The notes under the pieces are model-generated. The model did not search any database, was not told where the DNA came from, and saw only the letters and a program-made list of their open reading frames with translations. From positions 26,040,001 through 26,104,000 of the forward strand of contig CM114271.1 in the NCBI GenBank assembly GCA_050084515.1: a DNA stretch of 64,000 bases, written 5' to 3'. Source of the DNA: Blasia pusilla. Its lineage: Eukaryota. A program made the translations under genes and the position numbers. Below, in pieces: positions 12,921 through 64,000 of this stretch; the first letter of the stretch is position 1, and every line of letters starts with the position of its first letter.

Positions 12921-12972
<52 letters not shown>

Positions 12973-13156
12973 CATCCTCTCTTTGTTGAATCTCCTTTGC
13001 ATGAGGCAATAGTGCTATGGGGCTCCTTGCCTTCATAATAACTCCAACCTCTCAACATTGTGGTGGATTTGGTTTGAAAAGGGAGAAAGAAAGATGGAGG
13101 TTTGTATCTGCTAGTTTTCCTTTTACGCGATAGAATGCAGGTGTCTACGGACAACA
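12669..13156 (+). mobile_element. Solo A+B repeat unit related to the split-repeat Gypsy family at 27-37 kb
   Basis: Starts TGTCA and ends ACAACA; flanks AAGT/ATGT (3/4 match as a 4-bp TSD). Internal gagctcatcctctctttgttgaa...tttggtttg resembles the repeat A stretch at about 27304-27411. Confidence 0.45.
12926..12970 (+). repeat. (AG)n microsatellite
   Basis: Uninterrupted AG run inside the solo repeat; a shorter equivalent is at 37089-37106. Confidence 0.95.
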
Positions 13157-19440: not shown

Positions 19441-20049
19441 GTGAGGGACTAATCATGTTGCACAAAAAAATTTTTTAATTTCCCGTTGTTCTTAGAGGGA
19501 AACATTTTTTTGCGCCTGTACAATAGACCAACCTAAACAAGTACAATTCAAGATAAGTGAAAGGTTGAGAAGGGTGACAAAGTTGAGAAAGGTTAAGTGT
19601 TGGCAAAGGTTAAAAAAATTCATATGATTCTATTGATGGTAGTCTTTTGAAAGCTGCCAATTGTACTCGTCCCAAAATCAGTTTGCAATGAAAATGTTAT
19701 GTTGTTGCATGAAACAAAGGTTCTCTTTGAGGCAGCTTTGTGAGGGATTTTCTTGCCAATATTGGACATAAGTAGTTTACTGTGCTAATTAAAGTCCAAT
19801 TACCTTGTTAAATACAAGCAGATCTGCTGATACCAGAAAGAACTAAGCACATAAGTGCTCACCATCATTGCATTGAAGAGCTGATACAGAAGTAGATTCA
19901 TATGAGCAGTGGATTGTAATACCAATGATATGGTGACAAAAGCATCCCTCTTTACACATGTTTGCGTTCCATACGTTCCATATTTTCAATGTTGTTTCGT
20001 GTTCAAGGGTGGTGAGCGCCTCCAGAGCCTCGATATGGAATGTATAGAA

Positions 20050-23000
20050 TATTGAAGATTGAGTTACAGTCAAGCTCATGAGACACTTGAACTGCTATAT
20101 TTAGTACTCACACGAAGTAGGGAAGCTTAATCTTGGTTAGTCACTTAATCATGATTATCTTAACTAGGGTTAGTTAATCACAATTAGTCTAACTCGAGAC
20201 TATGGTTAAGGTTGCTTGTACATACCTTAATCATACACAATTGAAAGGGGACCAGACTCCACCCATCTCTCATTGCAAATTTTGTTCTCCATGGTGGTGT
20301 GTGAGTGTGAGAGCCATTTCCCACCAATTATGCTTCTTTAGTAGTTTTCCACATGATATCAGAGCGATAGGAGAATATTACTTGAAATTCTTGGTGTTTG
20401 AGGAGAGAAGAGAGGCAAGAGAAGGCACAATTTCAGTTTGGGAGAAGGAAATTTTGTTCAGAGCTGAGTGGATGCAGATTTTAGGTGGAGCTTTGATGGT
20501 GATAAAACTTTAGAGGTGTTTTTGAGGGCTTTCCCAGTCAATTTAGCCATCTAGGTCCACAGCGGCTAGGACGACGCCGAAGGCTCGTTCTAGGATAACG
20601 CCAAAAGCTCATTCTAGTTGGATACCAAAAGCCTATCTATTCATCTTGTAGAGCTTGTCAAGAGCTTTCTAACGCATCCAAAATCGCTTGATTCTGACAT
20701 TCTGAGCTCTTGCAGTAACAATTTCAGTATACGAAAGTGCAATTAGTGAAGAAAAGTTGCGCAGTTTGCTTTCTACAGGCCAATTTCGACTAGTTCTTTC
20801 ATACATTTGATCAATTTTGGAAAATTTCAGGTCAATTTCTATGTATGAGTGGTCTATGCTTCAATAGGAGCAGTAGAGAGCCTGAAATTACGTTTTAGTC
20901 AGTGAAATCGTTCGCCATGAAGTATTCCTCAACAACAATCACAAGCGAGAAGCTAGATAAGCAGAATTACAATGTTTGGAAGTTTCGCATGAAAAAATTT
21001 CTCATTGGTCAAGAACTATGGGAGCTTGTCACAGGTGATGAGGCCAAGCCAGAAGATGACTCAATAGACTTGAATATTCGCGCCTGGAATAAACGCGCAA
21101 GTAATCCAATATATTTCAATAACGATCAGTTTGCCAATGATAGGTCATATTCAAGATATTGATATTTCGAAGGAGGCCTAAGATGCATTAGAAAAGCTGT
21201 TCCAGACATCTACAAAGGCCAAAAAGCTTCAATTGAAATAATAATTGAATAAAGTGAGGAAAGGATCACAACATCAATGATTATATTTTGAGTATTAGAC
21301 GTATTGTTGATAAGTTGAATAGCATTGGAGTGATAATAGAAGATGATGATCTGATTTTGTTCACTTTTCAAGGCCTTCCGAAGGATTACAAGTCCTTTGA
21401 GACCTCTATCTCTATGAGAGAGAAATATCCAACTTTTCAAGAGTTAGTCCCATGGTTAATCAGTGAAGAGATGCGCCTAATATGCAGCGATAGCTCGTCT
21501 AGTTTGCAAGAGAGTGCGCTGCTTATAGGTTATGGATCAAAAAGAGGTAGGCATCGTGGCAGAAGCTTCCGTGGTCATGGTGGATATCAAGCATATGGAG
21601 GATGAGGCACTCAATGTAACGTCACTCAATCAACTACTAACCAATACTAGACACAATCACAAGGTGGTGATGATGGAAACCGTTGGGGTGAAGATCAACA
21701 GCAGAAGGTCCCTAGATCTTGCAATTACTGTGTGATAAAGGCTCACTATGCAAAGTTTTGTTTCAAGAAGAAGGCACATATGAGAACAAGAGCCTTACAA
21801 CAACAAAACTATGTGGAGCATCAACACTAAGAGCAGTACCAAGAACGACAACATTCACAAACGGAGTATCTCTTGGTCATCACTCATCATATGGGAGCAA
21901 TGATCAAGAAAGACTCGATAGCAGATTGGTACATTGACTTTGATGCATCAAATCACATGACCTCACAAGCTAAATGGTTCAGTAGTTTGGAGCCAGTGAA
22001 AGATCCTGCAATTGTGCTCTTGGAAATGTTCTCTATGTTCCTACCATTGTAAGAAACCTGATCTCTGTAGGACAGATAGTAGAACATGATTCTCAAGTGA
22101 AGTTTAACGTACATGGTTGTTTCATTGAAACAATGGATGACCAAACTACGATAGCCAAAGGAACTAGATCTGACAGAATGTTCCAATTAGATGTTTCTAT
22201 GCCAGAGATTCAAACAACAATGTATCGTTAAACCCACCAACAAGTCATAAATCTAAATATGTGGCATAAAAGAATTGGACATATGAATCTTCAAAGATTA
22301 AAGAGTTTTTCATCATCTAATATAGTAATAGGACTCCCTAAATTAGCGAGGTCTGCTACATTAGAGGTATGTCCTACTTGCCAATTGGGAAAAAAGGTAG
22401 ATTTCCTTTTCCAAAGCAAGGTAGAAGAGCATCTAGGATATTGGAGTTGATCTACAGTGATGTGTGGACAACATCACAACATAACCTTAGTGTTTGCTAG
22501 TACTTTCTTTCATTTATTGATGACTTCTCTAGGTATATATGGGTATACTTTCTGAAAGCCAAGTAAGAGGTATTCTCAGTGTTCCAAACATTCAGAGTTC
22601 TAGTAGAGAAGAAGATTGGAGAAACATTCTAAAATTGCCTTGTGAAGGAGGAGGAGAGTATCTTTCAACAAAGTTTGATGACTATTTACGTTAGAATGGC
22701 ATCCAACGTCAAGTGACTTGCCGTTACGTTCCACAACAAAATGGAGTGGCTGAGAGGAAGAATCGACATATTACTGAAGTGGCACGAGCTATGTTGAAAG
22801 AGAAGAACATGCCTAAGGTGTATTGGGCAGAGGGTGTAGCATGTGCAGTCTTCTTTATCAACCGAACTCCAATAGCAAGAGTTCATGATAAAACTCCATT
22901 CAAAGTCTTCATAGGAAGTAAACCTGATTTTTCCTTCTTGAAAGTATTTGGTTGTATTTGTTATGCTCATGTTCCTTTTGAGAGATGTCAGAAATTAGAC

Positions 23001-25311
23001 CCCAAGTCTGAAAGATGTATCTTCATTGGCTATGCTGATGGAACTAAGAGATATAAGTGCTACATTCCATCCTCTAGGCAGTTTATTATTAGTCCAGATG
23101 TTGTCTTTGATGAGCTAAAGTCCTGTTATGCTCCATTTGAGCCTATTCCACCTCTAAACTTGTCTGTCGAGGGGGAGAATATAATTGTAAACCAACAAAC
23201 ATTGTCTTCAACTTCCCCAAGTACTAGTGCACGATTAGGAGAGTCATAGATTCATCAGTTAAATTTATGAGTCTATGAACGGGAAGAGTACGTATTCAGT
23301 CTGTTGACACTAGTTAGAGCTCAAGTCAGGTGTTAGAGGCATCTACCTTTGAACAAAAACTTCGTAAATCAAGTAGAGTGATACATCTAGTTCATAGATT
23401 CATAAATGAAGGTTTCCTTATGACACATCATGCATATATGATGACTACCCTTCAAGAATAGGAGCCGAGTTGTTTTGAAGAAGCTTCAAGTAAAGTCAAA
23501 TGGATTGAAGCTATAGAAGAAGAGCTTGTTGCATTAAGACATCAACAAACATGGGAGCTGGTTGATATACCTTCCGATAAGGAAACTCTTGGTTGCAAAT
23601 GGGTTTACAAAATCAAGCGTAATCAAGATGGCACAATTAATAGATACAAAGCGAGATTGGTGGCTAAGGGCTATGTACTACAATATGACATCGATTATGA
23701 GGAAACATTTAATTTTGTTGCAAAGATGGCGACTACGAGAACAACGATTGTAGTTTCACTAAGTAAGAAGTGGAGATTACATCATATGGATGTCAAGAAT
23801 GCCTTATTGAATGGAGATCTATACGAGGAGGTATATATGACTCAACCACATGGATACAAGCATCCCAAGTTTCCATTTCGCGTATGCAGGTTGAAGAAAG
23901 CTCTATACGGGCTCAAACAAGCTCCAAGAGCTTGGTATGGCAAGATTACATATGTCCTACAAGAGTTGGGTTTAAGGGTATGTGATTTTGACTCCTCGTT
24001 ATATCTCTTGAGAGAACAAGATCATACGGTTCTCATTATGTTGTATGTTGACAATCTCTTGATTATTGGGAGTATTGAAGAAATGGTACAACAAGTCAAG
24101 CTTAAGTTACAAGGAGAATTTGATATGAAGGACTTTGGAGAACTCAAGTACTTCCTTGGTATTGAGTTTATCAAGGTTGGAGAGAGCATGTCATTAATAC
24201 AACCGCAATATGCTCTTCATATGCTTTCAAACTATGGTATGAAGGCTTGTAAGCCAATCTCTACACCGTTGGACCAAAGTGTGAAGCTAAGAGTGGATGA
24301 AGGAGAGTTTCTTGCATATTCTAATATGTACAGGCGCACGATTGGAAGTTTGATCTATCTAACTATAACTAGACCAGATTTGAGCTATGCTATTGGCCTA
24401 GTGAGCCAGTTTATGCAAGCATCTCGAAAACCTCACCTTGATGTTGTGAGGAGGATTATGCGGTATGTGAAATTCTCTATTCAATTTAGGCTTCAATTTG
24501 AACCTTCTCCGAGTTTTCAATTACAGGGATTCACAAATACAGATTGGGCAAGAAGCCTATCTGATCGACACTCCACATCTGGTTATTCATTTACTTTGGG
24601 AAGCGCAACTATAAGTTAGACTTCAAAGAAGCAAGATACATTTGCTTTATCTTCAACAGAGGTTGAGTACAAAGGAGCAACCAATGCAGCATGTGAGACG
24701 GTGTGGCTTCATCAATTACTTGTTGAGATTGGTGTTAGTCACTTAGGACCCAGTGTAATATACGAAGACAATATTAGTAGCATCAAGATTGCTAATAACC
24801 TTGTGTTTCATGCTCGTACAAAGCATGTTGAGATGCACCATCATTTTATCAGAGAGAAAGTGCTTGCAGGAGAAATTGATCTTGTGTATATAGGTACAGA
24901 TCAGCAAATTACTGACATCTTTACGAAGGTATTGTCTAGAGATAAGTTTGAGATGTTTAGAAATGATTTAGGCGTTAGAGAGATCGATATGAGCTTGAGG
25001 GGAAGTATTGAAGATTGAGTTATAGTCAAGCTCATGAGACACTTGAACTGCTACATTTGATACTCACACGAAGTAGGGAAGCTTAATCTTGGTTAGTCTG
25101 TTAAGCGGGATTATCTTAACTAGGATTAGTTAATCACAGTTAGTCTAACTTGAGACTATGGTTAAGGTTAGGGTTAGGTTTGCTTGTACATACCCTACAT
25201 AATTGAGAAGGGGACCAGCCTCCACCCATTATCTCATTGCAAATTTTGTTCTCCATGGTGGTGTGTGAGAGCCGTTTCCTATGAGTTATGGTTCTTTACC
25301 AATTTTCCAAA
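20050..25311 (+). mobile_element. Full-length degenerate Ty1/Copia LTR retrotransposon
   Basis: LTRs 20050-20353 and 25006-25311; PBS TGATATCAGAGC 20354-20365; PPT GAGGGGAAG 24997-25005; TSD TAGAA/TGGAA. Copia order gag-PR-GAG-pre-integrase (WHKRIGH)-INT (PQQNGVAERKNR)-RT (LYGLKQAPRAW, YVDN)-RNase H (HARTKHVE). Many stops and frameshifts. Confidence 0.96.
20918..25018 (+). pseudogene. Copia gag-pol polyprotein (disrupted)
   Basis: ORF fragments 20902-21162, 21288-21605, 22259-22450, 22713-23249, 23657-24619 and 24701-25018; RT YVDD changed to YVDN. Confidence 0.93.
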
Positions 25312-25905
25312 TGGAACGCATGAGGCCCTCTTTGCACTTAACGGAAAATACTTACATAATGACCAGAGTGTTTTGGATCTGTGTAAGAAGATCCTCAGTC
25401 TTGAGATCCAAAGAAGCTCGAGGGTGCCAAGTTAATCTTAGAAAAAAATTATTGCATTTCTAAGATTTCCGTTTGCCAATGCTCGAGCGTGGTTTATGCT
25501 TTTGGCGTTGGGGAGATAATTCAAGAGGCTGTGACTTCGTAGATTATGATGTACTACTTCGCAATCGATTTTTCTCACTTATGACGAAGATAGTCTTGGG
25601 TACTTTCTATATTATAGATGGTTTTCCAAGTTATGCTTTCAATCTTTGAAGATCTTGGATGGTGACATTGAGTAACATGGTGCAACGGAAGTTCCATAGT
25701 GAGTGTTGCTTCTTTGTCGAGTAGTTTTGATGTTGCGTGATTTGTCTTAAGAAAATGTCTAACTACAGCCAAGCTGTTAGCAACCATTTCTCTTGACCAC
25801 GAGCCTTTGATGATGCAGTTGCACGTGAGTAGCAATAGTAAACGTTGTGCTTGTTATCTATACGCACCCTAAATTAGTGTACAAATCATTATCCGGATTG
25901 CTGAG

Positions 25906-26121
25906 TATTTTCAACATTGTTTCCTATTGAAGGGTGGCGAGTGCCTCCGGAGCCTTGATGTGGAACGTATGGAACGCATGAGGCCCTCTTTGCACCTGCC
26001 GACAGATACTTACATAATAACCAAAGTGTTTTGGATCCGTGTCAGAAGATCCTCAGTCTGGAGATCTGAAGAAGCTTGAGGCTACCAAGTAAATCTAAGA
26101 AACAATTTATTGTATATCTAA
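25906..26121 (+). repeat. Paralogous empty-site copy of the sequence interrupted by the Copia element
   Basis: Matches 19981-20049 joined to 25317-25463, with a single TGGAA at the insertion point. Confidence 0.85.
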
Positions 26122-27485
26122 TATCTGAAACGACAAGCTCTAAGCATGCCCAGGTTTAGCAGTTGCTTGCAATGTCTTGCCTTGTTGTGGCAGGAGTATT
26201 GCCTACGATTATGCACAGCGCCACTATAATCTTATGAATGTTTAGTTCTATATATGTAGACATAGTACACTAATGTAGCTGGGACATCCCCTCTAGATGT
26301 TAGTTGGTATTAGGGCTGATCTGGTGTCCCTGTTGAGGGACATGGTCTTGCAGATGCAGTTGTGACAAATCAACAAAAAATGGGGGGAACGAATGATGGA
26401 GGCGATGCACACAATAGCTGCTTAATATATTGGCCAGTTTGGATCTTTGTGCTGGCATGTTCATGTGGTATGAAGGTTGGCAGCATTGGCATATGGATAT
26501 CTGGAAGGGGTATTGTATAGGGCCTCCAATAGTAACTGCATTGGATTATTGTCTGTTAAAAGGGTAAACCTTAACAAACTTCAGAATTGTAAGTATGGAA
26601 TTCAGTCAAGGAGCATGTATGAAGATCTGCCTATCTGAGGAGCATATACCCATAGTTCCCACAGCCATAGCTGTGAGCTCCCACGAATAGAGGACATCTT
26701 AGGGTTGCTGCTTACACCTTATATGCAGACCCTTAAATCACACATACTGAGTCTGGAAATAACTCTAATCTATTTTCTACAGAATGTGACAACAAAATAT
26801 CCCTACGAATATGCCCAGTTGTTTGTGAAAACCATGCTTAGAGAGGATAGAGAAGTAGAGAAACTGCACATAAGGTTAATCACTCATTGAAGGTCTACAA
26901 TGATTGCAGCTGAAAACCTTGATAAATCCCTGAGTGATGCACAAGTTTCTTTTTGGAAAGGGGGTGTGGGTTTATATGTTGGGATAGACCATACCACTCA
27001 AAAAAATTGACAGAAGTGATGTTTTAATGAATGCGAGGTCTGAAGAAGATTTTCTAATTTCTGAGAGTCATTGGAACTTGAGAGAGCAGGTTTCCCTTCG
27101 TTTCGGCTCATTTGGAGCCATATAGAGAAACTTACTATTTTGGGTAAGTTTTTATATTTGGTAGAGTTAACTTTCCACTTTAGGAAGTGGTCCTTGACTC
27201 GCTACAGCAGGTCAAGAGCTAAGGAGGTGACTTGTGAGCATAGGTTAGCAAGGAGAGAGCTTGGGAGAGGGAAGGGGGTATATCTCAAGGAGAGAGAGCT
27301 TGAGAGCTCATTCTCTCTTTGTTGAACCTCTTGGCACGTGGCAACGGAACTATGGTACCTTTCCTTATGAGTGTAACCCAAGCCTCTCATTAGGAGAGTG
27401 GGTTTGGTTTGACATTGAGAGAGACATGTGAGAGTGCACACATTTGAGAGCTATGGTGTTTAGAGAGATTGGATCTACTTGATTT

Positions 27486-27500
27486 ACAAAGAGAGAATGA
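27486..27500 (+). promoter_or_regulatory. Self-priming-type PBS of element A
   Basis: ACAAAGAGAGAATGA is the exact reverse complement of TCATTCTCTCTTTGT at 27308-27322, about 30 nt downstream of a TATA-like GGTATATC. Confidence 0.75.
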
Positions 27501-30500
27501 ATGGAGTGAGAGAACTTCATGGGGGAGCTCGTTGGTTGCTCGATGTGTGTTGCAGCTTGGGGGATCGTGTTCTCCGCTTCATGGCTCATAGGAGTGCTCA
27601 CCGGAGCTAGAGCCGCGTGAGTTTGCTGTTTTGATTTTCCTATGGGAGAGTGGTACGTGGAAGTGTTGGCCAATTTTTTATGGGAATTGAGTATGGGGAT
27701 GGATTGCTCCATCTTGGTGCTCTTGGAAGCACAATGTAGCTTGCTGGTTTGTTTTGTGATAGGTTTCACATTTTTTTGGGAGAAATCAGCGTGGAAGCGT
27801 TGCTAAATTTTGCGTAGGAGAAAGAGACGTTGGGCTGCACGACAATCCCTGTGAGTTTTTGGTGGAAAATCAAATAGAAAAACCAATTTGACAAGATCGG
27901 GAAGTTGTGTATGCTGCTGAAGAAATAGTGCACAATTTGGAGATTAGAGCACGGAGTTATGATCATTTTTGTTGGGCTGCCATCACCACCGTTCCAAGGT
28001 GTGAGTGAAATCTCCAAAATCCTTGGGTAAAAATCCTTGTTGATAGGTAGAAAAATAAAATCATGTTTCATCCTAGGAGATTGGACAAAGGAAAATTTCA
28101 GTTGAAGTAAGATTTTTTTTTAGGGGGGGTGTTGACCCTCAATTTTAGGAGAGAATTGTGAGAAACCCTCAAACTGCAATCTGTCAAAAGGGGGAGCAAT
28201 CAAGTAAGAGGCAAAAATAGTGGGGATCCGGAATTCTAGGGGGTTATTTTAGTTAGGAGGAAAAAAAATTGTGGTCAATCCGCTGCCGCGCAACCGCGGA
28301 CTCTTTTGCGACCGCGGTACGTTGCCGCATACTACCGTCCGTGACTGGCCTGCCAGAGACGCACTTCCCGGCTACGCTGCTATTTCGGATTTTCCGCCGG
28401 CATTTTCTTTGCCTGCCTGCCGCTTGTCTCCATCGCATCTCCGTAGCCGCCCGCCTTGCTGTCCCTGCTGGAGCCGCCGACGATCGCTTGCCGACCGCCT
28501 CTCCGTTGAGCCGCAGCTTCCGGCGCTCTATAAACGCGACCGTAGCCGCGTCCTTCTCCCGCCCTTCCGGCTCGCGGCCGCTGGATCTGGGCCATTGGGC
28601 TTGCACGCCGCTCTGTCGCCGCCGCTTCCAACCGTGCGGCTGTCGCCGCTCTTCCATCATTATTGTCGCATGCAAAATGTGAATTTGTGGTCTTTCCGTG
28701 TTGTGATTTCCGTATCGTTACGGTCGGACCCGCACCGTTCATTGGAGAGATTTTAGCATAGTCATTATTAAAGGAATATGATATGCTGCTTAGAAGTTTT
28801 GTCTCCACCGTCGAGTTGAGGTCGATATTTATAATTATTGAGGAGCGACATCGATATTTGTTCATGTTATTCATTCTGGTCTTTTGCCCTGCCATGTTGG
28901 GGAATTCTGGGTAATGGGCTGTTATATGGGATATTGAGTTTCGTGTTGATGCCCAAAGCATCATTGATGTATGGGTTTAGGGGACATAGACATGTGTGGG
29001 ATGTCCAGAGTTGAGGGTGTGTGATGTCGATGAGATGATAAGACAACAGACGATTTGCCGTACCATGCTGCTTGTTGCCGCAAAGCACACGTCTCAGTGA
29101 GAGAGTATAGCTTGAGTGCCGCATGTTAGATTGAGTGATTGGGTGATTACTCTCGAGGTTGATAGTGATTGTGTGAGAGGAGCACGAGAATCATCAACGC
29201 GTCCTTTTAGGACTTTGAGAGGCGAGGTGGTGGACCTGAGAGTAACTCTAGAGGATTTATCCGGAGTGGTGCGAGGTTACGAGAGTCTCCAAGTGAGAGA
29301 CCGCTTCAATCTCCTTCTGTGTCGTCTTCAGATAAGGGGGAGAGTATGGAGGAGTGTGCTAGTGATCCACCGCACACATTGAGTGGTCCTACCAGTTGGG
29401 TGTACGAGATGGACGACCGGGGTAGAGAACCGCGTAGGTTTTCGGGTGCTAAAGGCACTATAGAGTTACACGACTTCATGGCGGAGTTTAGGAGTTGGTG
29501 TGACTCATAGCACGCTAGGAACTCTAGATAGTTCAACCCATTTACAACATGGAACGGAATTTTCCAGCATTTAGAGGGGCACCCATGGACGATTACAATG
29601 AGATCTCGCAGAGATATGACCATGAGATTGAGGCCTTCAGACTCTTCTATGACCCATACTATCTGTTATGGATTGAGCCGTTTCCAAATGAGGAGGAGGA
29701 GTCAAGAGAGGGTTCCTCCACCAATGATGTTGTAGGAGGGGTGACTCGCACTAGAGCTGTTGCATCGTCTAGTCGAGTTTTTCCGAGGTTCAACCCCGTG
29801 CTTGAGTTCTTCGCTGAGTTGAGGGCGAGCTACTAAGGAGTACGGACGGGGAAGTTACGGAGCATCCACAACTTCCAAAGGCGCCCGGGTGAGAGTTTGC
29901 GTGAGGCCTACACCCGCTTGCGCCGGTTGATTAACGTCACTCATGGGATGACAGAGGCTCAGGCTATCCAGTCATGGTACGCGATGCTGGACCGGACCCT
30001 GCGGACTCGTGTGCGGAGGGGATGCTTCTTATGAACACCTCCCCTATGTTGAGAGATGTTTTTAGGACCACCGAGAACATTGAGCGCAACATGGCGGAGG
30101 AGACCGTAGCCACCATGGGTTTTGGGCGAGAGCAATCACGATTGCCTACAACACCAATGCAGCAGCATGGATTCCGAGATAAGTCTATGGCACCACGAGC
30201 TCAGGGAGGATACCGGGAGGCCGTGCCATAGAGACCTGCGCTTTCATATGCGGCTCAACAGCAAGCGCCTCCGATTACCTGTTGGTCATGTGGCGGAGCC
30301 CATCATTAGCGTGATTGCACTCGTCAGGGTCATGGTCGCATGGAGGAGGAGATGGTACTGTACCAGCAGGTTATTTGTGTGACTATTGTCACACTAATAA
30401 CACACGCGCCAGGTGTTTCAGCTTGCACTGTGAGTTGCATCCGGCTAGGGCTAGAGAGGATTCGAGAGCGAGTTGCCGGATTGGGTAGGCCTAGAGGTCG

Positions 30501-31619
30501 TGCACCAGGTGGTCCTTTTGGGGGACGAGGAGTTGGATTCGCCCGAGGGGGTGGTGGAGTTGCCCGTGGAGGAGGTAGAGTCCCACCACCTAGACGTGTC
30601 GAGGGAGACGTTGGGCGTGAGGTTGGGATGGCTGCTCAGATACAACAGATACAGAAGCATATTGACGATATGGCATTGAGGTTACCCAATGCCAGATGTG
30701 TGGCATCATGTTTAGAGGTGATTAAAGAGGAGGTGATGGACGTGCCCTTAGAGCTGATGCTTGGGTCGTCCACGTCAGATTCATGGCAGGCTGCGGCTGC
30801 TAGGATGGCGGAGATGCCCACTAGACCCGCAATAGAGAGTGCCATGGCTTCTCCTGCTCTTGGTTTGTTGGATAACCGGGGAGAGGTCTTCCAATTGGTG
30901 AGTCTAGGAGGTAGAGCTTTTAGTCTACAACGCATCTTGTTGGATTCAGGAGCACAACCCCTCATGTTGGGGAAAGTGGCATTCAAAGGTTTGGGCCTGA
31001 CGAGGGTCGATGTGGAGCGTTGTCCATTTTGGATACAAAAATATTTGAGTGGAGCGAGTACCACACAGTATATCGTCTGATAGGAGGTCGTGGTGAGGAT
31101 TCTCCAGGGACATCCTACAGATGAATTCATGGTACGAGCCAAGGCAATAGTGACTGATGCAGAGTCCTACAACGTCTTGGTTGGTGGAGCAGTGTTGTAC
31201 CCGATGGGGTTTTTAGTGGATTAATAGGAGAAGTCAGCCTCCTACAGACCAGGATGGCAGTTAGGTGATGGGCGCCTCAGCTCATTACCCATTCGATTCA
31301 TAGGTGCAGTGATCGAGCAACGGCCAGGAGAGATGGCGACCTTAGCAACATTTACCGGCGTCATCACTTGGCCTAGTGATTTGATTGAGGGACATATCCA
31401 TGTAGAGAACACTCTCGTTCCTGACATGTCTATGGAGAGGAGTGTCATGGTAGCCGCATAAGTCCGTGGAGCAGAGGTGCCACTTTGGGGCTCGACTAAG
31501 GAGCTTCGATGCTTAGCCACTGAGCATGTACAGATCGCGTGGAGCGAGACATTTGCACCAGAACGTGACGGGTTAGAGAAACCCGAGGTAGCTGAGAGTG
31601 CTATGATGACGCCCTTGGA

Positions 31620-32620
31620 TACCACACCCATTGTGTGGCGCATCCTAGAGGAGGGTATTCGAGTGTTGGATCTCTTTGGAGGGATCACCACTGGATTAGT
31701 TGCTGTTTAGCAGGGAGGAGTATGCGTGCAGTAGTACCTGTATATGGAGATTGATGATGTTGCAAGGCGCGCTTCACTTCACCATGTGGCGCAGTTACGC
31801 CTCCATTTTTTTGACTTTTTGTGTGCATCCGCTATCCAGGGATACCGGAGTTCCCTACCGAGGGATAGTTCATTGCTGGGGACGCAAGACTTGGAGCGGG
31901 TAGGGACCATAGACTTGGTCATTGCTGGTTGGCCGTGTCAGGGCCAATCGAGTGCTAGACAAGGTAGCGGGTTAGTTGACACACGGTCCAGGTTATTTTG
32001 GGAGATGATGTGGAATTTGCAACACTTGCAGGAGCATTAGTCCCGTTCTCCAGCATACATTCTGGAGAATAAGCCGATCTTGGGCGATTCGAGGTCAAGG
32101 TGGTGACGAGTGCACATCAAGTGTGTACATGGATCGACTCAATAGTATTTTTGGATGCGGCGAGTGTAGGTTCTAGAGCACACGGCCCGCGCCTTTGGTG
32201 GACCAACTTGATCGCACATGAGGTTTTGCGGAGGGCTTATGCAAGAGTGGAGCACCCCTCCGATTTGTTGGTGGATACTATTTTGGATCCAGGTCGTCAA
32301 TCACACGCAGTGAGGCACGATGATCGATCACCGTTGACTATGGTCAAGAGGATTGGCATGCGACGAGCAGTCTTTCCCACATTTTTGAGTTTTCCCGCTT
32401 CTTATGTAGTCAAGGAAGCCATACCTGGTTTGGTTTGGGATGACCAAGTACAGAGGTTGGTGGAGCCCAACGCCGATGGGCACGAGCGAGCGATGGGATT
32501 CCCCACTAGAGTGACGGTAGTATCATCACTATCAGAGGCATCACGACGTCTTTTCTTGGGTCACGCGATGGACCTGAATGGCTTGACATGGATTTTCAGC
32601 TTAGGCGTAGTTGAGCAGCA
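31620..32620 (+). pseudogene. C5 cytosine DNA methyltransferase domain within Pol of element A (disrupted)
   Basis: Motifs in order: VLDLFGG (I), EID (II), DLVIAGWPCQG (IV), YILEN (VI), RAHGPRLWWTNL (VIII), ERAMGFP (IX), LGHAMD (X). In-frame stops and a frameshift. Confidence 0.92.
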
Positions 32621-35600
32621 TCGTTTGAGGATGCGACAGATCACAACTATTGCGTTGGTGAGCCCCATACATGCCAAGATGGTTGAGGCAGTGGCCGGGG
32701 GCCAGATCGAGGAGATCGACATACTAGGGGTGATCGGGAGAGACACATTTGAGGAGATTGACACACCAGGGGTGATCGAGAGAGACACCCTTGGACTTCT
32801 TGGGATGTTTTGCACGTACGCCATGAGATGGTAGCCACAATATCGAGCGTGTTACTACACATGGAGGAGATCGGGTTTTACAGTTGGATGTAGGAGATCA
32901 GCCGAGTGCAACTGTCCGAGACGGGGTTGCACCATAGCAACCACCTACATCCGGGCCGGAGAGTCCTACTGTAATCACGATGGAGACTTGGGAGCGTGAC
33001 ATAGACCCTAAGTTCACAGGAGGAGAATGGCGCCGGATACATCAGTTCTTGAGGAGTTATAGGAGTTGTTTTGCATTTAGCATGCAGGATTTGGGTATGC
33101 TAAAGTGTCCAGGGATCCGCATTGAGTTGTCGAGTAACACACCGATCTTCCGACGATCCTACAGGTACTGTGACATGGAGAGGGCTCTAATTCAGAGTAG
33201 GAGCCAGGATTTGGTTGGAGTAGGACTAATGGAGATGTCGCATGGAGAGTATGCATCTGCCACTGTCATGCCCGCCAAGAAGGATGTGCATGGCAACTGG
33301 ACGGATAGGGGTATGTGTGGAGATTACCAACCTATCAATCGGCAGACAAAGTCTGATAGGTATGCCATGCCCATCCTAGAGGAGATATTTGATGCGATTG
33401 GGCATGCAAAGATCTTCAATTCATTGGATTTGCAAGCCGGATATCATTAACTGCCTATCAGATTGGAGGACACGCAGAAGACCGCATTTTGGGGCATCGA
33501 TCCTCACGGGAAGGATTGTTTGTACCAATGGAGGTTCTTACCATTCGGGTTTACGAACGCCCCAACTGAGTTTCAGAGGATCATGGATCATAGATCTTGG
33601 CAGGTTTGGATTTTGCTAGGTGTTATATTTATGACATCGTAGTCTTTAGCGCCACGGTTGAGGAGCATGAGCGACATCTAGAGGAGGTGTTCCGACGATT
33701 GTAATTACATGGGCTAAAGCTACATCCAGGCAAGTGCAAGTTCTTCTATGACCAAATTGAGTACTTGGATCATACATATACCCAAGGGGCCTTGGTGTGC
33801 AACAGACGAAGGTAGAGGCTATTTCACGCATTCCATGCCCTACATATGTGAGTTGAGTTCGTGCATTCATGGGATTGGAGAACTTCTATCGATGTTACAT
33901 CAAGGGTTTTAGTTTGATTGCAAAGCCACTAACCTTGCTAACTAGGTGGATCAGGAGTGGCACTCGGGGGATGAGCACGAGAAAGCATTTCAGCTGCTCA
34001 CGGACAGATTGACGTCCGCGCCCATATTGAGGAGATCGATCAGGGGGCGTCCTTTCCAATTGCATACCGATTGGAGCATGTTGGGGCTTGGAGCCGCGCT
34101 CACCCAACATAATGATGATGGTAGAGAGTTTGTGGTGGCTTACGCAAGTCACTCAAACAACGTTGCAGAAGCGAAGTATAGCTCGTATGAGGGTGAGTAC
34201 TTGGCTGCGGTGTGGGCTATCGCACATTTCAGTTGTTATTTATTCGACAACCCCTTTACCATCATTACCAATTATTAGCCACTTAAGTGGTTGATGGAGT
34301 CCGACAAGCCCACAAGGAAGCTTGCGAGGTGGGTTCTTTTTTTGGAGGAGTATGACTTCTAGGTGGTGCATAGACCTGGGATACTCAACCAGGATGCAGA
34401 TGGTTTGAGCCATAACCCATGCTCGAGTCAACAAGATGCAATTGGAGCTTGTTGGCATGGTGAGAGTGATGAGGAGTTGGTGCCAAGATGGCACGCGCCA
34501 GCCAATTTGGGACTACTGGCTATGGAGAGCCAGATTGCCGAGACTTTGATGGTGTGGTCTGATGGAGAGTTCTTGGATCCAGAGGTTGGTGAGGAGACAA
34601 CAGGTGGCCGAGATATTCACGACGATGGAGTGGTCTTGGAGTACCTACGTATTGGCAGTGTCGCGAGCATAGTGGTTGCTAGAGAGCGGGATTGGATCCT
34701 ACAGCAAGCCAGACGGTTCGGGTGGGAGGGGACACATGTGTTGCGAGTTTGGGAGGATGGTAGAGTCCGTAGAGTGCCTCATCCTTTGCAGAGAGCACAT
34801 TTGGTGCGTCATGCCCATGAGGAGTTGGGTCATTTTGGAGTGAAGCGGACGTACAACTTGCTCCAGATTCAGTATTGGTGGCGAGGCATGAAAAATGACG
34901 TTTAGTAATTTGTTGCCAGGTGGTGTGTGATCGAGTTTGGGCATCGTTCAATGCTCCGACTCCACAGTTACATCCACTTTCGATTATGGGTTTAGGTTAT
35001 AGATGGAGTTTGGATTTTGCAAGACCTTTACCTTTGGCGAAGCGCCATAGTCGGTATGTGTTGGTGATGGTCGAGCACTTCTTGAAGTAGATAGAGTTGG
35101 TTGCATTGCCTGAAAAAGAAAGTGAGGGAGTAGCATATGCCTTCCTAGATCAAATGTTGAGTCATTATGGTGCAACAGTTTAGGGTTTGACAGACCAGGG
35201 TACAAAGTTTCGCCAGGAGTTTCACGCCTTGTGTGATCAGGCACTGATCCACCATCGCACTACTTTGCGAGATCATCCTAAGGCGGATGGACTAGCGGAG
35301 CGGGTTTTGCAAACGGTGAAGAGAGGATTACGCAACTATGGCTTGTAGAGAGGTTACCTAGGAGATTGGGACCTCCAGTTACGGTGGTTGGCGATGGGAT
35401 ACAGATTCAACAGACAAACATCCTTAGCGTCTTTCTCACCGTACATGCTGCTCTATGGCCGAGAGCCAGATTTACCTACGGCCATTTGTCGAGAAATTGG
35501 TGAAGTTTTGAACCTTGATGACCATGATGTATGGATGCGAGCATCTTCTCAGAGGGCTAAGTTATTTCGGAGAGTGATGCCCAAGGTGTTTGAGAACTTG

Positions 35601-35794
35601 GTAATTGCGCAACATCGGGATACATTGAGGTATGCGACTATGCAGGGAGGTGGTTATCGACCTACTATCCGGAGGTTTCATCAAGGAGACTTTGTCTACT
35701 TGCAATAGATGGCACCAACAACGTTGGATGTGACTGCAGGGCGCACCATCTTGAGAGCGCGTGAGATTTTGCCATCTGGTGTTCTCTTGTTGGA

Positions 35795-36182
35795 TTCTCA
35801 ACATCCACTTCTCTGAGCACCATTAATCTGATCGCCCCCCTTGTATGAGGAGAAGCCTAGATTGATGGTTCCGACTTAGACGTCAAAGGAGTCATAGTAA
35901 TATGACGTAGGTGGTTTCAGGAGTAGCGTTACGAGGATTATCTAACCCAATTTTGCAAATTTTATCTATTAATAGAAACAAAGAAAATTAGGTAAAAACC
36001 GTAGTTTCTCGAGTAGTGAAATAGTCGGGAGCCGTAGCGGTAGCGCATTCTCGTATGTCGAGTTATCTCCATATTCAGGTTTCATTGAAGCTCTTATGTG
36101 AGCGCACGGACGGACTAGGCCACTTTGTATCTCTAGGTTTTGTAAAGATTTCAGTGATTTTGTCACTTTCTGTTTTCTCATA
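35795..36182. mobile_element. Unclassified 388-bp insertion in the integrase C-terminal region of element A
   Basis: Flanked by TCTCTTGTTGGA (35783-35794) and TCTCTTATTGGA (36183-36194). Removing it restores LPSGVLLLEGRDG; elements B and C lack it. Confidence 0.75.
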
Positions 36183-39100
36183 TCTCTTATTGGAGGGACG
36201 CGATGGTATGGTTTGGAAGGACCATGTGCGTAACTGTGCGCGATGTCATCTTCCAAAAATTGACGGTATAATTGATCCGAGCTTAGCAGTAGTTCCTGTA
36301 GGCTTGCGGTGTATGTTGTGTGGTTCAGCCACTACGCTAGTCTGTGATGGGTGTTCGAGAGGATGGCATATGGCATCTCTGACGCCATCTCTCACTAGGG
36401 TTTCTGAGGGACGATGGATGTGTCCCAGATGTACATAGAGTAGGTAGTTCTAGATTCAGACTTGTGTCTGTGACATGGATGACAAGAAGGGGACTAATGA
36501 TGGGGCCACATGAGCACCCAACCTTTTTGCTCTTAGCGTCCGAGAGATGTATATCATGGTAGGTAGGGATAGATGGCTACCTGGAGTTAGAGGGACCTAA
36601 CCACCAACTAGGGGGGCGATTGGAGATATTTTGGTACTTCTTGTCTCGTTGTTTGGATGACATGAGTTAGCATGGGATTTTACGTGTTTGTGTGTATGTT
36701 TGTCGACAACGATGTATGTTGTGTAGCGATGTGTATGCCCACGACAGCTGTCATGACTTTTCAAGATAGATGAGAGAGATCTGGTAGAGCGCCTTCACGA
36801 GTAGAGGAGGACACGCTCAGGAGGTCGAGGATGACGTGCTGAGGTCTTGAGAAACCTGAGAGAGCAAGTTTTCCCTTCGTTTCGGCTCATTTGGACCCAT
36901 ATAGAGCAACTTATTATTTCGAGTAAGTTTCCATTTTTGGTAGAGTTGAATTTCCACTTTGGGAAGTGGCCCTTGACCTAACCTATGGCTCTTGACCCGC
37001 TACAACAGGTCCAGAGCCAAGGAGGTGACTTGCAAGCATAGGTTAGCGAGGAGAGAGCTTGGGAGAGGGAAGGGGGTATACCTCAAGGAGAGAGAGAGAG
37101 AGAGAGCTTGAGAGCTCATTCTCTCTTTGTTGAACCTCTTGGCATGAGGCGACGGAGCTGTGGTCCCTTTCCTTGTGAGTGTAACCCAAGCCTCTCATTA
37201 GGAGAGTGAGTTTGGTTTGATATTGAGAGAGACACGTGAGAGTGCACACATTTGAGAGCTATGGTGTTGAGAGAGATTGAATCTACTTGATATATTGGAA
37301 ATATTTTGGTACTTCTTGTCTCGTTGTTTGGATCCCATGAGTTAGCATGGGATCGTGCGTGTTTGTGTGTATGTTTGTCAACAACGATGTATGTTGTGTA
37401 GCAATTTATATGCGCACAACACAGCCATTAGTAGCACATAGTAGTAAGAGCAACTGATGACCTGCAATTGGCAAACAAATTACATAAGAACAGAGAGGTA
37501 GTGCCCCGTATGAAAAAACGTAGAGGAAAATTTGAACACGGTGGCTTGCATTGCTAGATCAATGTTTTGCACTATAATCATCGGAATCAAATGTACTTAG
37601 GAATCGCAGGTTGCCACAAAGACGTTCGCAAGGGACACGAACTTAGAACCGCCACTGCAAGGAAACAACAAAGTATGGCGGCATGGTAGATCAGGATTAC
37701 AATTCCAGGAGATAGTAGGCAAAGATGAGGAGAGACCATCAATAGAGATAGGAAAGGAATGAATACGATTATGGCTGTAAGCCCTTGCGCTATGTAGTGA
37801 AAGCTAATATGGGCCGAACCTGGTGGAGGCGGCCAGTTACAGCTACAACAAATGCAGCCTATATAATTGCCACTCCCTAAAATAATGCAATTGCAAATCC
37901 ATGCTGTGGCGGACATTGTGCACGATTGGGCAGTAAGGCCGCTAAGATCGCAAAACAAAAAGATTCATCCAATGTGAAAAGACCTAAGAATTCAAATGGC
38001 ATAGCGTCCTAGGCCTTGGCGCAATAAAGAGGATGAAGAGCTTACAATAAGTTGTAACACGTATGTAAACTCAGCTTCATGAGGACCTGATTGCCAGAGA
38101 AGCACGCAGCCGCGCCATTGCATCCATGCCCCAAGCCGTTTTATTCTTACTAAGAATGGATAGGGATGCAATTGTGCATCAGAAATGAGAGACTAAATCT
38201 GTGTTGCGACAACGACCATACTCCTTGACAATAAGATAGCATCACAATTGCAATTGCGTTGTGGAGAGTGCATACACAATCTAGACATGACCAACATCCA
38301 TGGCCTATTGATATTGTCTGGAGAACAATTTATAGAGGCTGAATACCGCGAGCGGCGAGTCAGCAATCGAGAGCATAACACAGGAAGCATGAACTACCGA
38401 CAATAGTGGAAAACAATCCCAATGAATGGACACCGACAATTCCGTGTTTCCCTGTTTAGAACTCGAGTCTACCAAAGGCGTAACTCGCTCATCCGATGCT
38501 CTCACTGGTGAACACTTCTTGTGTGTAGCCATCGTAGCCTTCTTGCTGTGGCTGAAGCAAATCTCGAGGCTTGCGTAACAATCCATCAGCCAAACTAGTG
38601 ACGCATACATGTATTAGACACGTGGACACCTTGCGCGGTCTCTGCACTCCGAGGGATGTGTTGCGACCATTAGGGACGGTGGCAACACGGAGGGAGGCGG
38701 ACAAAGCTTGTGCACGTTGTAAGGCTACTGAGATATATTGCCAAAATTAAGGAGTGACTACAAAGAGAGAAGGACTATGAAGCAGTGATGGAGGCGGATG
38801 GGGACGGTGGAGGAGGATGCCATGGAGGGAAGGAGGAGGGAGATGGTTCGTGTGATATACCAAAATGGAGATCTCAGTCTCCTCTACGTTTTGATCCGCA
38901 TCATCGATCTTATAGTGAAGTATTTTTTGTTTTATTATGTTTTTTAGATTCTTGGTCTTATTATGGTTTCTCATGTAGGTATTATGATGCCCTTTGTTGT
39001 CTTGCCTCATTGTCAAGTTATGGACGTTTCCAAGATAACTCATGTTTTTCTTTCACACCACCCCTTTTTCTCTACATCCTTCCCTTTTGGCCATGCATAT

Positions 39101-49543: not shown

Positions 49544-52500
49544 ATATATAGCATTTAGATTTAGAAGATGACAATTCTTAGTTAGACGGACCTAATGAAC
49601 CTAATCAAAAGCTAGGAGGATGATTGGGGTGCTTCCATGTCATTTTTGGCATCGTATTTGAATACGATGCCAAAGATCATGATCGTATTTGAACTTACAC
49701 AATCACCCAAACCTTGTGGACACAACACCTTGATATATTTATATTCAAATAAAATCAATGATAACCTCACAAGACCTTAGGAAGACCATCACCTTAATTG
49801 TAATCAAGATTTGAGGGACTTTGTAAGCTAGCTCAAAGTTTCTTTGAGCTAACAATTTTTGTAATTTCCCTTTTACCTATAACGAGTAGTTTCTCATGAG
49901 TGAATAAGTAAATTGAGATCTTTGGGTGTCGCTTGTCACTCAGCTCTTGTGAAGCTCTCTTCCCGTTCCATTCCACATGAACAAGAATGCGGCCTTGGTA
50001 TTGTCAAAGAAAGGGTAGCAAATATAGTAAGCCATGAAGTTGAGTAGACATCAATAAAGCAACAATATAGGAGGGAAAAGTGAATGCCTTTTGTGAAATG
50101 CCATCGGGGCATGCTGCAGATGGTTGTATACAATATAAAGACTGACGTAGTTTTCATTGACCATAACGATGTAGGATACCAAGGTGTGATGCGTGCTGAT
50201 GTTAAGTTTAGCTATCGGGCTCGAGTCGTCTTATTAGCGTCGGATGAAGACAAAAACTTCGATTGGCGGACTTTCGTTTGACTAGTTACTAGCTAAGATG
50301 GCTTAGCAAAGTCTTCCTATATATTCTTCAAGCCTATATATAGGTTTGATAGAGTCTTCCTAGCTATCCAGGGTGGGGTGACCCTTATCCCCATAAATAG
50401 CTGCGCCTTTTCTTGCGTAAGGCTAGTCTTAGGGCGCATGCTTGTCTCACCTAGTGTTAGTCCTACGACTGGTTTCCTCATTATTCGTAGTCTTGTGACT
50501 ACCTAGTCTACGTTTAGACTTTGGTGAGTGAAACCAAAGTCTTTCCTCTATGGACAGACGATCATAACTTGCTTCTCGACTCCCTTGTCGTGCGAATCCA
50601 CATCGTAATACAACATACATCGCTGACATACCATACTCACATACATACATAATATAGATGAGAGCATCCACAAACACAAGTGTACCACAACTGAAATCCG
50701 TGAAAGAACTAATGTCATAAAACACGTATAGAATCACATACAATCGAACCAAACCCACTCCACGATGGGAGAATCCAGTCGAAGCTTGCGGGAACCATCA
50801 TAGCCAAGAGCTCTACTCACTACCAAGGCTAACTCCAAACGCAAGAGGCTCAACTCAAAGAACTAACTGTTCTTTGAGTGCACTCCACACTATATCCTCC
50901 AACCTAAGAGCGGGCCCTACTGGAAAAGTCACCCTCAACTGAGTCACCCTCAACTGAGTAACCCCCAACCCTATGTATGAAACCGCATCTCTACCTAGAC
51001 ACTACGGCCCTACATAAGGTATGGCCTCTACTAGCACACTATACTCTACAACATAATCCGTACGGTCATGACAGTTGTCGTGCGAATCCACATCGTCATA
51101 CAACATACATCGCTGACATACCATACTCACATACATACATAACATAGACGAGAGCATCCACAAACACAAGTGTACCACAACTCGTCCCCCTAACTGGCGG
51201 TTAGGTCCCTCTAACTCCCAGTTAGCCCTATACATCTACTACATGCTATACACCTTCGTGGGTGCACGAATCAGAAGGCCGGGTGCTAGGTTGCCCCATC
51301 GTTAGTCGCACATCTGTAATCCATATCATGCAAAGATCAAGTCATCTACCTCTCCTAAGTACATTGAGGACAAACCCACCTTCCAGTAGGAACAACATCC
51401 ATACGTGGACTCAAACATATCATGTGCCAACCCCTAGAACACCGATCAGACACCAACATACGGGCTGCGTTACCAGTAGACCCATACAACATGCACCTCA
51501 AGCTAGCACGTATCATGGCTAAGCTCGGGTCAACAATACCAATCACATTTGGAAGATGACATGGCCCACAATTACGCACATGGTCCTTCCAAACAACTCC
51601 ATCACGACCCTCCAACATGAGAACTCCAGAAGCTAACACCTCGCGCACTCGTAAAATAGTGCGGCCTGCCGTCACATCCAACGTTGTCGGTGCAATCTGA
51701 TGCAAATAGACATAGTCCCCCACATGGAACCTACGAATCGATGGTAAATAACCTCCACCCCGAATGGTTGCATACCGCAACGTATCCCTGTGTTGAGCAA
51801 TGGCAAGATTCTCAAAGGCAGTTGGCATAACTCTCCAAAAGAGCTCTGCCCGCTGAGAACACACTCATCCACATCTTTGGGTCATCAAGGTTCACCACCT
51901 CACTAGACTCCGACAATTGTCCTTTGGCAAGTCCGGATCTCGGCCGTATAACAGAAAATAAGGTGAGAAGGAAGCCAAGGATGCTTGGCGACTGAACCTA
52001 TACCCCATGGCTAACCATGGTAACTGAATATCCCAATCTCCAAGATGCCCCTTCTGTAGGCCATACTTGCGCAATGCCCTCTTTACCGTCTGAACCACAC
52101 GCTCAGCCAAACCATCTGCCTCTAGATGATCTTGAGACGTGGTCTGATGATCAATCAACGCCTTGTCACACAAGACCTGAAACTCACCCCAAACTCAGAC
52201 CTTGGTCGGTCAAGACTTCATTTGGTGCACCAAAATGACTAAACACTCTATCAAGAAACGCATAGGCCGTTCCCTCACTTGCCTTGTCAAGTAATGCCAC
52301 CAACTCAATCCACTTGGAGAAGTGGTCCACCATCACCAACACATATCGATGATATCGTACAGTCAACGGTAACGGTCCCGCAAAGTCCACACTCCAACGG
52401 TAACCCAACCCCATAATAGGCAAAGGATGTAACTGTGGTGTAGGGGCATTGAATGATGCCCTCACCTGGTCACAAACCATACAACGTGACACCAACTACT

Positions 52501-63500: not shown

Positions 63501-64000
63501 GCAACTGAAATGCTTTCTCTTGCTCATCCCCCCAATGCCACTCGTGATCCACCTTGGTAAGCAAGGTTAGCGGCTTCGCAATCAAATTGAATCCCTTGAT
63601 GTACCGCCGATAGAAGTTCGCCAATCCCATGAATGCCCGAACACGACTCACATCTGTAGGGCGTGGAATGCGTGAGATAGCCTCTACCTTGGTCTGCTAA
63701 ACACCAAGGCCCCTTGGGTATATCGTATGACCCAAGTACTCAATCTGGTCATAGAAGAACTTGCACTTGCCTGGATGTAGCTTCAGCCCATGTAATTGCA
63801 ATCGTTGAAACACCTCCTCTAGATGTCGCTCATGCTCCTCAATCGTGGCGCTAAAGACTACAATGTCATCAATATAATACCTAGCAAAATCCCGACCAGC
63901 CAAGATCCTATCCATGACCCTCTGAAACTCAGCCGGGGCGTTCTTTAATCCAAATGGTAAGAACGACCACTTGGACAAACTCCCCGCATAACCTTCTACT
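60512..64000 (-). mobile_element. Element C (same family as A), 3' part: RT (YIDD), repeated RNase H segments, INT, PHD and a single B repeat
   Basis: PFGLKNAP...YIDD (63697-63978); RNase H segments at 62857-63195 and 62540-62800; INT; PHD CMLC..CDGCSRGWHMAC..CPRC; B repeat 60633-60512 ending TGACA, with no A2-B2 after it. Confidence 0.9.

Follow-up and report, generated by a model that had tools for sequence, protein, structure and literature searches.

We describe a retrotransposon, element A, found in a stretch of 64,000 nucleotides (nt) of the bryophyte Blasia pusilla (GenBank assembly GCA_050084515.1, contig CM114271.1, positions 26,040,001 to 26,104,000; the whole stretch is referred to as the window). 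Element A occupies positions 27061-37421 on the forward strand and is very probably a decayed copy of an abundant bryophyte Ty3/gypsy lineage of the Gypsy-DNMT3 kind, throughout which the direct repeats follow the order A-coding-B-A-B. The standard integrated form of this lineage reads, from 5' to 3', repeat A, primer-binding site (PBS), coding region, polypurine tract (PPT), repeat B, two nucleotides (NN), repeat A and repeat B, a layout that implies an unusual integration route. Taken as a whole, the explanation that we favor, which combines this identity and the lineage-wide layout with insertion of a circular intermediate by the element's own DDE integrase, has in our estimate a probability of roughly 60%.

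Results

The window was analyzed by repeat searches and by self-blastn, after which the junctions were read directly in the sequence. Blastn and direct reading agree on the anatomy of element A and bear out the order (5'-truncated A1, PBS, PPT, B1, GC, A2, B2) and the repeat lengths of 128 and 545 nt given in the original prediction, a note made from the sequence alone. The 5' copy of repeat A, A1 (27061-27486), lacks the TGTCATGAC start, about 104 nt of the beginning of A2 being missing from it; a weak likeness begins near 27061, and 27075-27486 aligns with 36853-37294 of A2 at 85% identity with gaps (E = 2.6e-147). A1 is followed by the PBS, by the coding remnant and by the PPT AGGGGGGCG (36610-36618), which was read in the sequence and stands immediately 5' of B1 (36619-36746); the same G-run also precedes B1 in elements B and C of the window and in the metagenome loci described below. 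B1 ends in CACGACA, an integrase-type right end, and its CA is separated by the spacer GC (36747-36748) from the TG of A2 (36749-37293), the complete 545-nt repeat A, which starts with TGTCATGAC, an integrase-type left end. The terminal copy of B, B2 (37294-37421), is 90.6% identical to B1 across 128 nt (E = 1e-44) and ends in CA, with unrelated flank beyond. In the sense of reverse transcription, B1 is the 5' part of the unique 3' region (U3), and A1 is presumed to contain the repeated region (R) and the unique 5' region (U5).

The identical order recurs in a second family, represented on the reverse strand by element B (60435-50585), which is composed of A1 (60435-60053), PBS (60052-60041), B1 (51182-51075), the spacer AC, A2 (51073-50692) and B2 (50692-50585). 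Blastn finds no match between repeat A of element A and that of element B, and the two have in common the TGTCATGAC start; the B repeats and internal regions of the two elements are 65-72% alike. Blastn and junction reading thus uphold both halves of what had been predicted, namely that element B repeats the split-repeat order of element A and that their A repeats are unlike beyond the shared start. TGTCATGAC occurs three times in the window: A2 of element A starts with it, as do both A1 and A2 in element B (0.86 occurrences expected by chance; 5 of 100 shuffles reach three).

The join of A2 to B2 in element A had been predicted to equal, with one mismatch, the end of U5 joined to the start of U3. 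This is what is found: it corresponds to the end of A1 followed by the start of B1 with a single mismatch, the boundary lying one base further to the right than originally placed, such that U5 ends in GATTTA and U3 starts with TTGGAG. The two pairs of repeats look equally old. In element A, 34 of 411 aligned sites differ between A1 and A2 (8.3%) and 12 of 128 between B1 and B2 (9.4%; Fisher p = 0.72); in element B the values are 21 of 382 (5.5%) and 3 of 108 (2.8%; p = 0.32). This is consistent with identity of the copies at one insertion event, and since the pairs are equally diverged there is no sign of the later, independent duplications that would have spoken against the prediction.

The termini of the inserted unit are the start of A and the end of B. 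The first, TGTCATG, and the reverse complement of the second, TGTCGTG, form a short inverted repeat (TGTCRTG); the start of B and the end of A carry neither TG...CA nor inverted repeats, and the A end of element A is not CA. Both ends are in view in four elements, that is, element B of the window and the metagenome elements L010, L008 and L054, which provide the three distinct metagenome 5' ends that are visible. A further candidate 5' end, L026, was rejected, its A1 being reduced to the last ~13 nt. All four have an intact A start, at which unrelated flank passes directly into TGTCATG with no B upstream. Perfect 4-base-pair (bp) target duplications border two of the four: AGGG on both sides of element B, outside A1 and B2, and ACTA on both sides of L010, which ends in a single B. 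Of the features by which Ty3/gypsy elements are recognized, TG...CA ends with a duplication of 4-6 bp are therefore present in the lineage, and two whole long terminal repeats (LTRs) are not: the unit B+NN+A is whole at the 3' side only, B being missing from its 5' copy, and the element finishes with an additional B.

The landmarks of reverse transcription define this LTR unit, inside which the inserted ends lie. Directly 3' of A1 in element A lies a putative self-priming PBS (27487-27500), a 14-nt perfect complement of a stretch within A1 (27308-27321) that would mark the 5' end of the transcript, and thus the start of R. Equivalent complementarity is found in all five elements considered, in which the 9-14 nt right after A1 pair perfectly with a stretch 158-233 nt into A. 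Complements of the observed length were reached by few shuffles of A: 0 of 2000 for element A (14 nt), 1 of 2000 for element B (12 nt), 2 of 2000 for L008 (11 nt), 28 of 2000 for L010 (9 nt) and 0 of 2000 for L054 (13 nt). As the L054 complement differs in sequence, the pairing has been kept through change. A PBS of the transfer RNA (tRNA) type was considered and rejected, for no TGG start is found 3' of A1 in either family of the window. In predicted folds of the RNA that spans the complementary stretch and the PBS, the helix between the two forms the closing stem. The PBS directly after A and the PPT directly before B mark the LTR of reverse transcription as B+2 nt+A, and at the A2-B2 join the last base ahead of the PBS exactly meets the first base behind the tract (...CGA), in both window families and in most metagenome loci; at one site (L022, L024), ~25 nt of the A end are missing and 2 extra nt of B are kept. 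The LTR of reverse transcription and the inserted unit, from A start to B end, are offset from each other by one length of B. Copies of the form A...B-A-B retain R-U5-PBS...PPT-U3-R, and copies of the form A...B cannot be transcribed again.

To survey relatives, metagenome contigs were scanned with an alignment built from the open reading frames (ORFs) that hold the integrase C-terminus and PHD finger in elements C, B and A. The scan yielded 80 loci with 48-77% amino-acid identity, from which 16 with less than 700 nt 3' of the ORF were set aside; the remaining 64 were judged for their 3' end, and distinct insertion sites were told apart by their flanks. The arrangement PPT-B-2 nt-A-B followed by flank is present at 32 of the 64 loci, corresponding to ~17 distinct insertion sites, several of which were sampled in more than one contig. 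Another 26 loci (including L003, L006, L010 and L027; ~21 distinct sites) show PPT-B followed by flank, three (L019, L032, L039) have a 3' end that could not be classified, and three carry a variant with an inverted A. A normal LTR 3' end, with A followed by flank, was found at none of the 64 loci, nor do these relatives thereby supply the ordinary LTRs that would have counted against the original prediction. In all 32 B-A-B loci, B1 ends in CAYRAYA, is separated by exactly 2 nt (gc, at, ac, gt or tc) from the TRTCA start of A. The B-A boundary is a CA-NN-TG near-palindrome, which in L023 becomes a perfect 7-nt palindrome.

The inverted-A variant (L001:1164-1810, L013:3242-3880, L014:1293-1930) consists of PPT-B-2 nt-full A-PBS followed by the inverted first ~190 nt of A, and ends in GGTCATGACA ahead of the flank. 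Its switch point is a palindromic hairpin formed from PBS-like and R-start stretches, and the variant may be a snap-back product of self-priming.

Sequencing reads offer a further view of the copy ends. Reads were mapped on 26401-38400 of the window at a likeness of at least 85%, using run X10 (raw reads under the same species label, ~1 in 100 sampled) and set X6 (contigs under another organism label). Matches to this region make up 122,189 of the 12,431,861 sampled X10 records, ~1% of the sampled reads. The best supported loose end of all in X10 follows the final base of B1 (36746), where 1414 reads continue for a median of 69 nt with a consensus agreement of 0.33, a value indicating many different flanks. 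With a depth of 1329+1341 in the bin around 36746, about half of the sequence crossing the end of B departs from the element at that point, a rough figure in which depth is set against read counts. The X6 contigs have 229 loose ends behind 36746 (agreement 0.36), and a further 77 behind 36753 cross the spacer and TGTCA and enter an A of a different kind. In X10, X1 and X6 there are also joints that lead from the end of A to the start of B (27476 to 36619 and neighbors). Past 37600, read depth falls to between 0 and 0.8.

These ends and counts bear on two explanations that would make the layout incidental. The first is a one-off rearrangement of an ordinary LTR element, by which an extra 3' LTR combined with a 5' truncation, or a nested insertion, gave rise to element A. 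Tandem arrangements of LTR elements do arise through unequal recombination, and the truncated A1 of element A would fit a B-A...B-A-B structure that has lost its first B. In element B, however, A1 is complete, no B lies upstream of it, and the 4-bp duplication is outside A1 and B2; the inverted TGTCRTG ends belong to the start of A and the end of B instead of the start of B and the end of A; the layout is shared by half of the 64 judged loci, none of which has a normal 3' end; and reads of other copies stop at the B end. We accordingly regard such a rearrangement as very improbable. The second explanation has masters with normal LTRs doing the replicating, the permuted copies being abundant dead by-products, for example integrated circles. 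It is favored by the degraded state of all window copies and by the B-only ends (26 of 64), which cannot supply a 3' R and hence are dead ends. Against it, the normal type is absent from the 64 3' ends and the four 5' ends, the termini it would expose (B start, A end) lack TG...CA and inverted repeats, and A...B-A-B copies keep everything a transcript needs, R-U5-PBS...PPT-U3-R. This, too, seems quite improbable, if slightly less so. The claim that the layout results from the replication mechanism of a lineage is in turn supported by two families with unrelated A repeats having both the order and the pattern of junctions in common, by the recurrence of the layout at 32 of 64 loci and by the read ends.

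The coding region places the lineage among Ty3/gypsy elements. All three window copies (A, B and C) are degraded by many stops and frameshifts, and a three-frame translation of the whole internal region of element A meets 109 stops. Using tblastn with Marchantia proteins, we nevertheless recovered the order Gag, protease-like region, methyltransferase, reverse transcriptase (RT), RNase H, integrase and PHD finger, and Pfam found the same domain order in intact relatives. The Gag-like remnant (29400-30378) matches the Marchantia proteins P0006 and P0027 at 35-59% identity, with stops and frameshifts. It is followed by a protease-like region and a remnant of a C5 cytosine DNA methyltransferase with PCQ and ENV motifs, spread over several frames (30700-32855; tblastn with P0006 and P0012, E = 5e-174; Pfam DNA_methylase on 31735-32040, E = 6.2e-07). 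Next come remnants of an RT (32974-33946), which aligns with P0012 at 54-70% identity and has a weak RVT_1 match below the cut-off (E = 8.6e-05, 22.8 bits against 29.6), and of a Ty3/gypsy-type RNase H (33946-34746; tblastn and Pfam RT_RNaseH_2, E = 2.2e-28). The DDE integrase remnant (34363-35345) comprises an H2C2 zinc domain (Pfam Integrase_H2C2, E = 1.5e-11) and a core, 67% identical to that of P0027 at 34950-35345 by tblastn. The integrase ORF closes with a C-terminal PHD finger (36025-36435; Pfam PHD, E = 1.4e-06) that aligns with those of elements B and C. All of these features lie on the forward strand. Pfam was run on separate stop-to-stop pieces of the window, 30 ORFs in all, and on 4 relatives; 6 of the 10 ORFs in a first set from element A and 9 of the 10 in a further set gave no match. 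In element B the Pfam matches are DNA_methylase (1.8e-09), RVT_1 (6.5e-12), RT_RNaseH_2 (4.4e-32), rve (1.2e-10) and PHD (3.7e-07), together with a weak Retrotrans_gag match below the cut-off (E = 0.0037). Elements A and B thus show the Ty3/gypsy order, Gag followed by protease-RT-RNase H-integrase, plus a methyltransferase before the RT. The PHD finger lies 3' of the integrase in all three elements (36025-36435, 51358-51864 and 60847-61500), where chromoviruses have a chromodomain, and is possibly a chromatin-targeting module.

The methyltransferase accompanies the lineage well beyond the window. It is found ~3.6 kb 5' of the integrase C-terminus ORF in 32 of the 80 loci, the most distant ones included, many of the other 48 being too short upstream to show it. 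The methyltransferase ORF of element B is matched by 29 longer proteins, the best named ones being from Marchantia polymorpha (72-75% identity) and the next from Sphagnum and Calypogeia fissa, which points to a bryophyte, most likely a liverwort, as host; an intact Marchantia protein has the order methyltransferase, RT, RNase H. In P0028, a metagenome protein of 1918 amino acids with 34% identity, the methyltransferase is placed differently (RT-RNase H-methyltransferase-integrase-PHD); a metagenome scan based on P0028 returned 47 pattern matches, none of which was confirmed.

The coding content also decides against a tyrosine-recombinase element of DIRS order, PAT-like or Ngaro-like, to which the repeat order A-coding-B-A-B would be identical (PMC4157794, PMC5890265). 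Pfam finds no tyrosine recombinase in the 30 window ORFs or the 4 relatives, and the lineage is for this reason not DIRS/Ngaro. An H2C2-bearing DDE integrase and a Ty3/gypsy-type RNase H are present, as are TG...CA ends and 4-bp target duplications, so that this assignment is hardly credible and, of all the alternatives weighed here, the one we rate lowest.

Two stretches of element A appear to be private to it. A 400-bp segment (35783-36182) is missing from elements B and C, is skipped by a joint from 35782 to 36183 in 346+284 X10 reads, and is bordered by an imperfect 11-nt direct repeat (CTCTTGTTGGA / CTCTTATTGGA); it probably entered later, as a small insertion that duplicated its target. 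In the leader, ~27950-28850 is a stretch not common to the family, with boundaries only as fine as the depth bins. Family read depth there is near nil (5.6/5.5 in bin 28001-28400 and 0/0 in 28401-28800), and the distance from A1 to Gag is ~1.9 kb in element A and ~1.2 kb in L010. This stretch is probably a later, unrelated insertion.

Other repeats complete the picture of the window. Element C (60512-64000, reverse strand), whose 5' part lies beyond the window, is a relative of element A at 83-88% identity, and its 3' end (60512-60633) reads PPT-B...CA and then flank, without A2-B2. Its RNase H/integrase region contains a ~312-nt tandem duplication (62491-62802 and 62808-63119, 86%). A fragment resembling repeat A of element A lies at 12944-13077, away from any B (84% identity across 77 nt and 73% across 127 nt). 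Another retroelement, at 20048-25314, has ordinary direct repeats (20050-20355 and 25006-25313, 84%) and, in the region 1-2118, an inverted partial copy at 175-2118 (83%). Right after it lies a 156-nt direct repeat pair (25311-25466 and 25969-26124, 85%, spacing 658 nt), which was considered as a third B...B pair and rejected, having no TGTCATGAC, PPT or likeness to A or B.

Discussion

The displacement of the inserted ends from the landmarks of reverse transcription points to an unusual route of integration. Under the model that we favor, ordinary reverse transcription would first give [B-NN-A]-internal-[B-NN-A]. Routes to the extra B by reverse transcription alone were considered and rejected; because the two standard strand transfers cannot add the final B, a form in which U5 is joined to U3 is needed. 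A 2-LTR circle would be the simplest such form, and in it the DDE integrase would cut the near-palindromic CA-NN-TG inside U3 as if it were two LTR tips. Insertion of the permuted molecule would leave the 4-bp duplications. In the product, A1 would retain a promoter together with R and U5, B1-A2 would hold U3 and R, and B2 would provide the right integrase end. Single-B copies could arise either by recombination between B1 and B2 or by the cutting of one-LTR forms. We give the step from circle to integrase somewhat less than an even chance. The fuller proposal, that the lineage has moved its integrase site from the LTR tips to CA-NN-TG in U3 and integrates from a U5-U3-joined circular intermediate, is more tentative still.

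Several observations weigh against this explanation. The flanks of L008 (GGTT / TGTT) match at three of four positions and those of L054 (GGTA / TGTT) form no target duplication, and because the left end of element A itself is lost, its target duplication cannot be checked. The 80 loci contain repeat samplings of identical sites, and 26 of the 64 judged end in one B, for which recombination and a primary product are both possible origins. A loose end at the A start is not among the best-supported read ends listed. If a 2-LTR circle were cut once at random, A-B-A...B copies should be equally frequent, a form seen in none of the three B-only elements with a visible 5' end, which are few and are deletion derivatives. 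We infer the circle, the transcript start and the cutting by integrase from sequence, and as the transcript start was picked by complementarity, the RNA folds are partly circular and add little.

The main rival, which we consider unlikely, needs no circle. It supposes an end-to-end template switch, from the U5 end onto the U3 start, during plus-strand completion; the resulting linear complementary DNA (cDNA) would continue past the 3' LTR into one additional B (or more), and the integrase would process the internal CA-NN-TG. Such a switch would account for the exactness of the A2-B2 join, with no bases gained or lost in both window families and most loci, and, being directional, would explain why A-B-A...B is absent from all three B-only elements in which the 5' end is visible. 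An identical join would, however, result if precise ends were ligated bluntly, and the shortened join of L022 and L024 looks more like end joining or later deletion.

The layout and the methyltransferase are already in print. From the green alga Klebsormidium nitens, de Mendoza et al. 2018 (PMC5890265) report a Gypsy element, KnitGypsy-Dnmt3, whose Pol includes Dnmt3 and whose repeats are ordered A-coding-B-A-B according to the legend of Fig. 4c of that paper. The Blasia lineage shares with it the Ty3/gypsy domains, the C5 methyltransferase in Pol, the repeat order and a streptophyte host. It differs in its bryophyte host, with the closest named proteins in Marchantia, Sphagnum and Calypogeia; in the present elements the methyltransferase stands before the RT. 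Its assignment to Gypsy-DNMT3 appears warranted by the methyltransferase in Pol together with the A-coding-B-A-B order. The passages of PMC5890265 that treat KnitGypsy-Dnmt3 are silent on its ends, target duplications, PBS type and mechanism, and a 2026 preprint, in the part that mentions them, merely names streptophyte Gypsy-DNMT3 elements. In the searchable literature we found no description of the ends, duplications, self-priming site, B-only forms or mechanism, and no report of the lineage from bryophytes; the supplements of PMC5890265 may hold some of either. Among the matches listed for retrotransposon split direct repeats, none appeared, by title and abstract, to concern integrase-bearing elements. 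What is new here, with respect to the published passages, is therefore the junction anatomy and the mechanistic hypothesis that results from it.

Three other systems each resemble the lineage in part. The split direct repeats of PAT-like and Ngaro elements are ordered A1...B1-A2-B2 (PMC4157794). As in the present lineage, the B1-A2 junction is what joining the element's two ends would give, and the same circle can be drawn. Those elements encode a tyrosine recombinase, whereas here there are a DDE integrase, TG...CA ends, a 2-nt spacer and 4-bp duplications. PAT-like and Ngaro elements are not known to make a target duplication. The lineage is like them in layout and is not a member of their group. 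Self-priming has been described for Tf1/sushi elements and predicted for plant Tcn1 (PMC6317226, in the passages concerned). With these the lineage has in common a PBS after U5 that is complementary to its own LTR, not to a tRNA, at what would here be the start of the transcript; they possess two ordinary LTRs and a chromodomain, whereas the present elements have permuted repeats, a PHD finger after the integrase, and a methyltransferase. Finally, integrase has been reported to cut the palindromic LTR-LTR junctions of circles in foamy virus and HIV-1 (PMC1180852, PMC1905944). The CA-spacer-TG near-palindrome of two integrase ends is shared with such retroviral 2-LTR circles, and its cutting would be analogous. 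In retroviruses, however, the junction requires that two LTR ends be joined and is a side path, whereas in the present lineage each LTR contains the site within its U3, and its use would be the main route.

Conclusions

LTR finders and textbooks assume two whole LTRs, and such finders would split or mis-annotate a lineage such as this one, to which ~1% of the sampled reads belong. Its out-of-register landmarks provide a concrete, testable case for the integration of joined LTRs by a DDE integrase, and the lineage allows a convergent origin of split direct repeats in integrase-bearing and recombinase-bearing retroelements to be tested. If the proposed route is true, integration at a circle junction would here be natural and obligatory, and the lineage would have arrived convergently at the DIRS/Ngaro/PAT strategy with a DDE enzyme. 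The findings also add liverworts and mosses to a charophyte as hosts of Gypsy elements that carry a methyltransferase, an extension that bears on the interplay of such elements with host DNA methylation.

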